IMG/VR virus record: IMGVR_UViG_3300042558_000825
Coordinates: 32,001-96,000 of that record
Direction: 5' to 3' (one strand)
DNA from: a virus
Length of the DNA: 64,000 bases
Shown here: one piece after another, positions 45,770 through 46,266 of the stretch
Layout: the number at the start of each line of letters is the position of its first letter
Numbering within the stretch: the stretch's first letter is position 1
The notes under the pieces: generated by a model
Seen by the model: the letters and a program-made list of their open reading frames with translations, nothing else
Told to the model about the DNA's origin: nothing
Databases searched by the model: none
Translations under genes and position numbers: made by a program

Positions 45770-46128
45770 TTCGTTGTCTGAGTTTGTCAGACCTCCTTGA
45801 AGATGCGTGTAAGAACGCTGATGGATCTGGAGTAAGCATAGTTAGTGATAACTATGGAATACCGAGAGGGCAATCGACAAAGCGAACCCTCAACAAGCTC
45901 ATCCCTACTTTATCTTTGCGGGGTGAGAAGTGCGTTGCTGAAGAATCAATTGAAAGATCATTGATAGCTTCACTACAGTCCCATAACTTTACAGAGCAAC
46001 CGGTAGCGTTTAGTAGCAACAAATAGCTAATTAGACGGGGAAAAGATAACAAAGGATGACGGGCATGGCAAATACCCTTAACCATTGGTAGTGCTGAATA
46101 GCACTACCATGGCTTTCTAAGCGGCAAT
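45770..46128 (+). ncRNA. Candidate highly structured ncRNA (~350 nt), family not recognised
   Basis: At least nine hand-verified helices, including nested multi-branch stems, a GUGA tetraloop and an 8-bp pseudoknot; G-U pairs favour the + strand. See findings. Confidence 0.6.
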
Positions 46129-46178
46129 TGAATTAATTAAATATAAACTCTTTATAAACAATAGATTACCGTTAAACG

Positions 46179-46221
46179 TAAGAACGAACGAAGTGAGTTC
46201 TTAGATGAACGAAGTTCATCT
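46179..46221 (+). other. Two tandem hairpins with C-GAA-G triloops
   Basis: TAAGAAC-GA-AC-GAA-GT-GA-GTTCTTA (46179-46203) and AGATGAAC-GAA-GTTCATCT (46203-46221). Confidence 0.7.
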
Positions 46222-46266
46222 TTACAATAGAAACAAGAATATATAATCCTAGCTTTGAATAAATGA

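Follow-up and report, generated by a model that had tools for sequence, protein, structure and literature searches.

Introduction

The plasmid ColE1 replicates from an RNA II origin that has a primosome assembly site downstream. In phage T4 the origins are about 100 bp long and consist of a MotA-dependent promoter with a DUE directly downstream, without structured RNA or hairpins, and oriE, oriF and oriG lie near strand and skew switches (PMC3016281). A further described element is the DNA mini-hairpin. According to a published rule, loops of the form C-GNA-G or C-GNNA-G (GTTA and GATA included) give extraordinarily stable structures as DNA; d(GCGAAAGC) and d(GCGAAGC) melt at 76.5°C and r(GCGAAAGC) at 39°C, and such mini-hairpins are found at the primase site of G4, in RSF1010 ssiA and at the N4 early promoters (PMC13037366).

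Here we analyse two adjacent hairpins from an uncultured T4-like jumbo phage, which resemble each of these systems in part. An earlier note on the 64,000-nucleotide stretch of DNA that was analysed (the window) had proposed that a structured RNA, an AT-rich unwinding element and single-stranded DNA hairpins together form an RNA-primed replication origin beside the recombination genes. We show that the two hairpins together form a structural module of the plus strand, which is conserved, present in single copy, linked to the RNA and distinct from ordinary terminators. Hundreds of giant lake phages have kept them as the tail of a new, large RNA gene, and a function at the end of this RNA is more likely than one in starting replication. 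The large RNA is carried by hundreds of uncultured giant phages and, plausibly, by at least one cultured phage (Sinorhizobium phage Phosso). Its tail offers a concrete, testable handle on what the RNA does; as Phosso can be cultivated, transcript ends, R-loops and marker frequency could feasibly be mapped.

A gene-free interval beside the recombination genes

The window comes from a 109.5-kb IMG/VR fragment with a CheckV completeness estimate of 32%; complete relatives have genomes of 300-525 kb. Its plus strand carries, in this order, genes for a gp55-like late sigma factor (40923-41834), a gp47-like Mre11 (41884-42897), a gp46-like Rad50 (43097-45169) and a Holliday-junction resolvase (PDDEXK_15; 45204-45758; Pfam PF24608, E 7e-26; phrog_244). 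The resolvase, which ends this block, is named RusA-like in PHROGs and D14/putative resolvase in one phage record, and by tblastn it matches annotated resolvases of cultured jumbo phages. A gap without genes separates it from a minus-strand homing-endonuclease gene just past the hairpins (46267-46764; phrog_314, E 2e-14), beyond which lies a minus-strand baseplate-hub gene (47070-47894). The homing-endonuclease gene is present in some relatives only and lies outside the element described here. The plus-strand genes and the RNA stop at about 46128 and the minus-strand reading frame at 46267-46764 faces them, so that transcription from the two strands converges at the hairpins, as the earlier note had observed.

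Relatives were fetched with the resolvase protein as anchor, which gave 80 loci, and the entire gap (45765-46225) is 70-98% identical across them. Megablast and blastn searches against cultured phages gave no match, and a search for tRNA and tmRNA genes found none.

A large structured RNA and its downstream hairpins

The gap opens with the core of a large structured non-coding RNA of about 360 nt (45772-46128, plus strand). RNAalifold predicted 77 pairs from 37 copies, with compensatory changes in 50 of them, and the ratio of G-U to A-C, 152:44, favoured the plus strand. The core is rich in G-U pairs (6.2% of cells) and its hairpin H4 has GNRA loops. No Rfam family matched the locus, either at the gathering threshold or at E ≤ 10. 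A conserved TAAAAAT-like stretch lies directly before the start of the RNA, and neither a conserved -35 element nor a MotA box was seen. The RNA and the resolvase operon may share one transcript.

The core is followed by an A-rich spacer (46126-46179, plus strand), which holds an AT tract (46126-46165), the sequence ACCG (46168-46171) and an A-rich lead-in to the first hairpin. The AT-rich tract that had been described ahead of the hairpins is present, with 35 of its 40 nucleotides A or T (87.5%). An AT-rich spacer is found in all relatives, and in the window it lies some 360 nt past the RNA start; in 98 relatives it is 20-86 nt long (median 51) and 78% A+T (A 48%, T 30%). Within the intergenic region no stretch is less conserved than this tract, and equally AT-rich tracts occur at 34 separate places in the contig, that of the window being one. 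It had been taken for an unwinding element, of which the A+T richness is real, but what carries it is an unconserved spacer of variable length with many equals in the same contig. The AT tract is a linker rather than a sequence element.

In the fold predicted for the window, the 3' end of the core (GCGG) pairs with the ACCG before the first hairpin. We dropped this pairing because the variants seen in relatives lack compensation; ACCG itself is clade-specific. One sub-clade (L171, L083, L119, L152 and L158) has at the 3' end of the core a GUAAU identical to the 3' strand of the first hairpin, which therefore could compete for the 5' strand of that hairpin (AUUAC); from the sequences, a switch and a coincidence are both possible.

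The first hairpin, hp1 (46180-46202, plus strand), has a 6-bp outer stem, AAGAAC/GTTCTT (46180-46185 with 46197-46202), then tandem GA/GA forming G-A/A-G mismatches (46186-46187 and 46195-46196), two inner pairs (AC/GT) and a GAA triloop (46190-46192) closed by C-G. It is abutted by hp2 (46203-46221, plus strand), a perfect 8-bp stem, AGATGAAC/GTTCATCT, with a GAA triloop (46211-46213) and again a closing C-G. Both C-GAA-G hairpins, and the tandem GA/GA of the first, were already in the earlier note and can be read directly in the window. On the 3' side of hp2 there are two pyrimidines only, and the sequence then becomes A-rich. In some relatives hp1 is elaborated to nested or three-way forms.

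The hairpins are a conserved, single-copy module

Folding of the single sequence gave a modest gain over shuffled sequences, whether as DNA or as RNA (z -2.0 to -2.6), and it is the comparative evidence that is decisive. In 27 diverse copies, which are not phylogenetically independent for counts of covariation, 99.1% of cells pair and 14 of the 16 pairs show double compensatory changes, with one-sided changes alone at none, a level that 0 of 500 shuffles reached. All eight pairs of hp1 covary, as do six of the eight in hp2, again with no one-sided changes, and the hp2 stem is 8 bp long in 174 of 200 copies. In the tandem GA/GA of hp1 the first GA never varies, nor does the G of the second, whose A is almost constant. 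It can be seen that the hairpins are kept at least as well as the RNA core. The existence of the hairpins is thereby confirmed, and the conservation in relatives that the earlier note had asked about is strong.

A covariance model of the module found it at 77 of 77 resolvase loci of the window's clade with enough flanking sequence, always on the RNA strand and downstream of the RNA. The same position and strand were seen in 208 unique copies fetched through the RNA-core motif. A metagenome scan for transcript-like contig ends returned long DNA contigs only. Four CheckV-complete genomes and the contig of the window each gave exactly one strong match to the module, which in the four genomes lies beside the RNA, and the 109.5-kb contig has a single hairpin of at least 5 bp whose loop is C-GAA-G. 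With one copy per genome, a repeated element or a general terminator motif was rejected. A second match in one genome (G005) is a plain GC-rich terminator and not the module. The module can be detected in clades where the RNA-core profile gives no match, and it is the most recognisable and most widely detectable part of the RNA.

An ordinary intrinsic terminator on the plus strand was likewise rejected. In the convincing terminators of this phage and of a relative, the stems are G+C-rich, the loops are GAAA, UUCG or GCAA, and the tails are U6. Past hp2 the plus strand has no U-tract; over 163 copies the nine nucleotides that follow contain a mean of 2.7 T, and the longest T run is at most 2 in 153 of these copies. 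As hp2 lacks a U-tract, it is no intrinsic terminator for the RNA. Like intrinsic (rho-independent) terminators and the 3' stabiliser stem-loops of phage RNAs, the module has a stable hairpin where a transcription unit ends, lies at a convergence point and is flanked by an A run on one side, but it differs from them in its AT-rich stems, G-A mismatches, triloops and lack of a U-tract past hp2. The earlier note would have given up its proposal had the hairpins acted only as RNA terminators; in stems, loops and tails they are unlike the ordinary terminators of this phage.

Loop and pairing signature

Among 200 unique copies, the loop of hp1 is C-GNA-G in 64% and C-GNYA-G in 17%, and that of hp2 is C-GNA-G in 75%; many relatives have the exact heptamer GCGAAGC. 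Where a tetraloop replaces the triloop it is GNYA (43 cases) far more often than GNRA (12), and UNCG is not seen. G-U pairs make up 0.8% (A1) or 0.2% (A2; 1 of 431 cells) of the hairpin cells, against the much higher share in the core, a difference with a Fisher p of about 1e-7 to 1e-10 for cells that are not independent.

Both hairpins thus have the C-GNA-G or C-GNNA-G loop and the Watson-Crick stem of DNA mini-hairpins. The special stability that the earlier note ascribed to the C-GAA-G loops as single-stranded DNA agrees with the published rule, the DNA forms melting far above the RNA form (PMC13037366). The resemblance to the d(GCGNAGC)/d(GCGNNAGC) mini-hairpins of the G4 complementary-strand origin, RSF1010 ssiA and the N4 early promoters covers the loops themselves, the sheared G-A closure, the GCGAAGC heptamer of relatives, the strictly Watson-Crick stems and the tolerance of third-position pyrimidines (GATA, GTTA, GCTA), as in DNA and not as in GNRA RNA loops (PMC13037366). 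The module differs from them in belonging to a double-stranded T4-like jumbo phage and in lying directly behind an RNA gene, in its sense. As to N4-type promoters, the T7/N4-type RNA polymerase family (PF00940) gave no match in two complete relatives, and control genomes gave none either. Tandem sheared G-A pairs, GNA mini-loops and absence of wobble are a combination otherwise known from DNA priming sites and hairpin promoters.

Distant relatives, including a cultured phage

A collinear RNA-like region of about 550 nt lies beside the resolvase in the cultured phage Phosso, in the close IMG/VR contig L220 and in the related contigs L376-L378. It is an unannotated structured region between RNase HI and the resolvase (L219:2487-3500, corresponding to 229759-230772 of Phosso, PV764938.1; L377:795-1345). 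Judging from sequence, homology to the RNA of the window is plausible, and the Phosso region may be the cultured-phage counterpart of the jumbo-phage RNA. An HMM of the RNA core did not detect the Phosso RNA, and a search for further relatives of Phosso turned up a single contig at the protein level and none at the DNA level. In Salicola phage SCTP-2 the space next to the resolvase is too small for the element.

In the Phosso and L377 clades the RNA and the resolvase are probably encoded on opposite strands, a call with moderate support from few sequences: G-U exceeded A-C at 9:4, 55:37 and 32:25, and alifold gave -159 against -125 kcal/mol. On this probable RNA strand Phosso also has a sub-threshold match to Rfam EGFOA (RF02955), at 29 bits against a cut-off of 37.7. 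L377 and L378 have a G-A-rich hp1 and a perfect hp2 (C-GTAA-G and C-GCAA-G) about 200 nt downstream in the RNA sense; the module would therefore have moved with the RNA to the other strand, which supports its reading as a tail. In L376, hp1 is without tandem G-A pairs. Phosso and L220 also carry the module on this side of the RNA, but in inverted orientation with respect to the probable RNA strand; it shows eight double compensatory changes among its 16 pairs, and G-U is absent. Should the strand call hold, the G-A strand is here antisense to the RNA, which fits neither a simple RNA tail nor the geometry of a displaced-strand R-loop, as it would be the template strand and not the displaced one.

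An RNase HI gene (PF00075; L219:2100-2486, L377:47-427) adjoins the module in the Phosso and L377 clades, a point in favour of an RNA-primed origin; against such an origin, three genomes of the window's clade gave no match to PF00075 RNase H. We also noted a candidate second hairpin pair on the other strand right beside the RNA (L377:712-775 and its equivalent in L378), in which a perfect hairpin is followed by a G-A-rich hairpin containing GCGAAGC; it is poorly aligned.

A putative 3' tail of the RNA gene

The best explanation, which we hold tentatively and at slightly less than even confidence, is that the hairpins form a structured tail at the 3' end of the large jumbo-phage RNA gene, on the plus strand. 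The gene would then run from the core through the A-rich spacer of variable length to hp1 and hp2, and the transcript would most likely continue through the spacer into the tail. hp1 would form a helix around tandem sheared G-A pairs with a G..A-closed loop and hp2 a perfect 8-bp clamp, and together they would mark and protect the RNA at its 3' end, or else interact with a partner. The A5 before hp1, which on the other strand is a U5 after the hairpins, may help to stop the converging baseplate transcript.

We infer that the module acts as RNA, and its role there, from several points. Linkage, order and strand with respect to the core are constant in the window's clade, at all 77 loci and in the 208 copies fetched through the core, the inverted modules of Phosso and L220 being the exception; each of the four complete genomes has its single strong match beside the RNA; and in L377 and L378 the module followed the probable RNA strand. 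Only on the plus strand are the tandem G-A pairs and G..A loops meaningful, and this is also the strand of the RNA. The elaborations of hp1 are as in RNA domains, and an unpaired A-rich linker is typical of structured RNAs. What a 3' tail does not account for is the near absence of G-U pairs, so unlike the core, and the preference for GNYA tetraloops where H4 of the core and the phage's terminators use GNRA or UUCG. The loops also obey the DNA mini-hairpin rule, with RNA versions being far weaker (PMC13037366), hp2 has no U-tract, and the inverted Phosso and L220 modules covary all the same. The DNA-type loop signature is the strongest point for action as single-stranded DNA, and one that the RNA tail leaves unexplained. 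If the tail acts as RNA it would be a new kind of 3'-end module, and if it acts as DNA the RNA would probably be a replication primer or a former of R-loops.

Alternative roles for the hairpins

A potential explanation that would make use of this signature is an RNA-primed origin, in which the transcript forms an R-loop in the purine-rich, A+T-rich spacer, the displaced plus strand locks into mini-hairpins, and DNA synthesis is begun from the 3' terminus of the RNA or by a primase that loads at the hairpins. We consider it unlikely. It is also doubtful that the module provides the DNA component of a start site for replication, where an R-loop formed by the purine-rich 3' region of the RNA over spacer and hairpins would trap the displaced strand as G-A/GNA mini-hairpins and so open the duplex for a primer or for helicase or primase loading. 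The origin reading has a low probability and circumstantial support: the loop census and strict Watson-Crick pairing follow the rules for the mini-hairpins of G4, RSF1010 ssiA and N4 (PMC13037366), hairpins much stronger as DNA than as RNA would favour the R-loop, an AT-rich spacer is kept in all relatives, the locus is single-copy and recombination genes are adjacent. Were it true, T4-like jumbo phages would have their first defined origin, and the large conserved RNA a task as pre-primer.

The comparison with T4 cuts both ways. As at oriF and oriG, a transcript would enter an A+T-rich stretch close to a strand and skew switch, with recombination genes nearby; however, those origins require just a promoter and a DUE directly downstream and no 360-nt knotted RNA (PMC3016281), whereas at this candidate origin the RNA comes first, then a spacer of in some cases just 20 nt, and a MotA-type promoter was not observed. 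The tract in the window, moreover, is one of 34 equally AT-rich places in the contig. T4-type phages have several origins but the module is unique, and in every complete locus of the window's clade it keeps the sense of the RNA and a downstream position, like a 3' tail. The antisense G-A strand of Phosso and L220 is a further difficulty. In ColE1, as generally known, a folded pre-primer RNA likewise leads through an A-rich transition to hairpins on the displaced strand, but here no antisense regulator is known, RNase HI was not found in the window's clade, and the RNA is far more intricate and widely conserved among phages rather than plasmids.

GC skew had been suggested as a check on the origin, and we rebuilt three complete or near-complete relatives (G001, G004 and G005) for this purpose. 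Each has one large minus-strand and one plus-strand block, with the minimum of the detrended cumulative skew at the divergent switch between them; in the window a strand switch lies at 40806-40922. The hairpins are 4.6, 8.5 and 8.6 kb to the right of the minimum, a distance compatible with an origin and reminiscent of T4 oriE, oriF and oriG (PMC3016281). However, the skew follows gene orientation exactly and is explained by it. The minimum falls where the genes change strand and the two arms differ greatly in length (64 against 239 kb in G005), so that the skew is not independent evidence for an origin, and as the three genomes share gene order they amount to one confounded observation. A virion gene and the gp55-like sigma gene flank the major divergent switch, and there is also one convergent switch; block sizes vary greatly among relatives.

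Somewhat less probable again is a terminator or insulator at the convergence point, where the hairpins and the A5 (U5 on the minus strand) would stop the baseplate transcript from entering the RNA gene antisense, and strict Watson-Crick pairing would reflect use on both strands. The module sits exactly where transcription converges, and in compact relatives the minus-strand gene ends with its stop codon right against hp2. In 163 copies A makes up 65-85% at each position from -7 to -3 before hp1, with a run of at least four A in 95 of them, and the absence of G-U is what one expects if both strands must fold. However, the U5 run on the minus strand stands behind an hp1 that is there a weak 6-bp stem with U-C mismatches, the phage's clear terminators are of another kind, with GC-rich stems, GAAA or UUCG loops and U6 tails, and on the plus strand no U-tract follows hp2. 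Termination also leaves unexplained the deep retention of the G-A pairs and G..A loops and the occurrence of one module per genome.

SbcCD-type nucleases cut DNA hairpins, and resolvases cut cruciforms. That the module is a DNA hairpin or cruciform site for the Mre11/Rad50-like gp47/46 or for the resolvase, cleavage being a programmed break that seeds recombination-dependent replication, is highly improbable: the module always neighbours the gp47-gp46-resolvase block in the window's clade, its inverted repeats are perfect with very stable DNA-type loops, and gp46/47 are essential for recombination-dependent replication in T4 (PMC3016281), but arms of 6-8 bp are very short for extrusion or resolvase cutting, a cruciform has no need of strand-specific G-A features, and the idea is purely inferential.

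Sequences beyond the hairpins

A third conserved motif, GAATAAATGAC...TTACGGG, lies on the plus strand at 46257-46277 and is kept in most relatives as GATAAATGAA...TTACGG(G). It also takes the form (CCCG)...GATAAATGAAYAGTTACGG(G), 10-40 nt 3' of hp2, and is seen in L012 at about 5040-5075. The motif is missing from compact relatives, and it stays with the hairpins where genes have been inserted beyond. We did not accept it as a late promoter, as it only resembles the consensus GATAAATA without matching it; other ATAAATG sites lie within genes. For the phage (contig G000) the late-promoter consensus appears to be (A)GATAAATA(C) or else CTAAATA; it lies 20-35 nt ahead of start codons and, over the whole contig, is 19-24 fold enriched upstream of reading frames.

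Directly past the hairpins there is an insertion hot spot (46232-46850 in the window). At the same spot L052 has a minus-strand reading frame of 166 aa, and L070, L073 and L078 have different, unrelated minus-strand reading frames of 244-248 aa.
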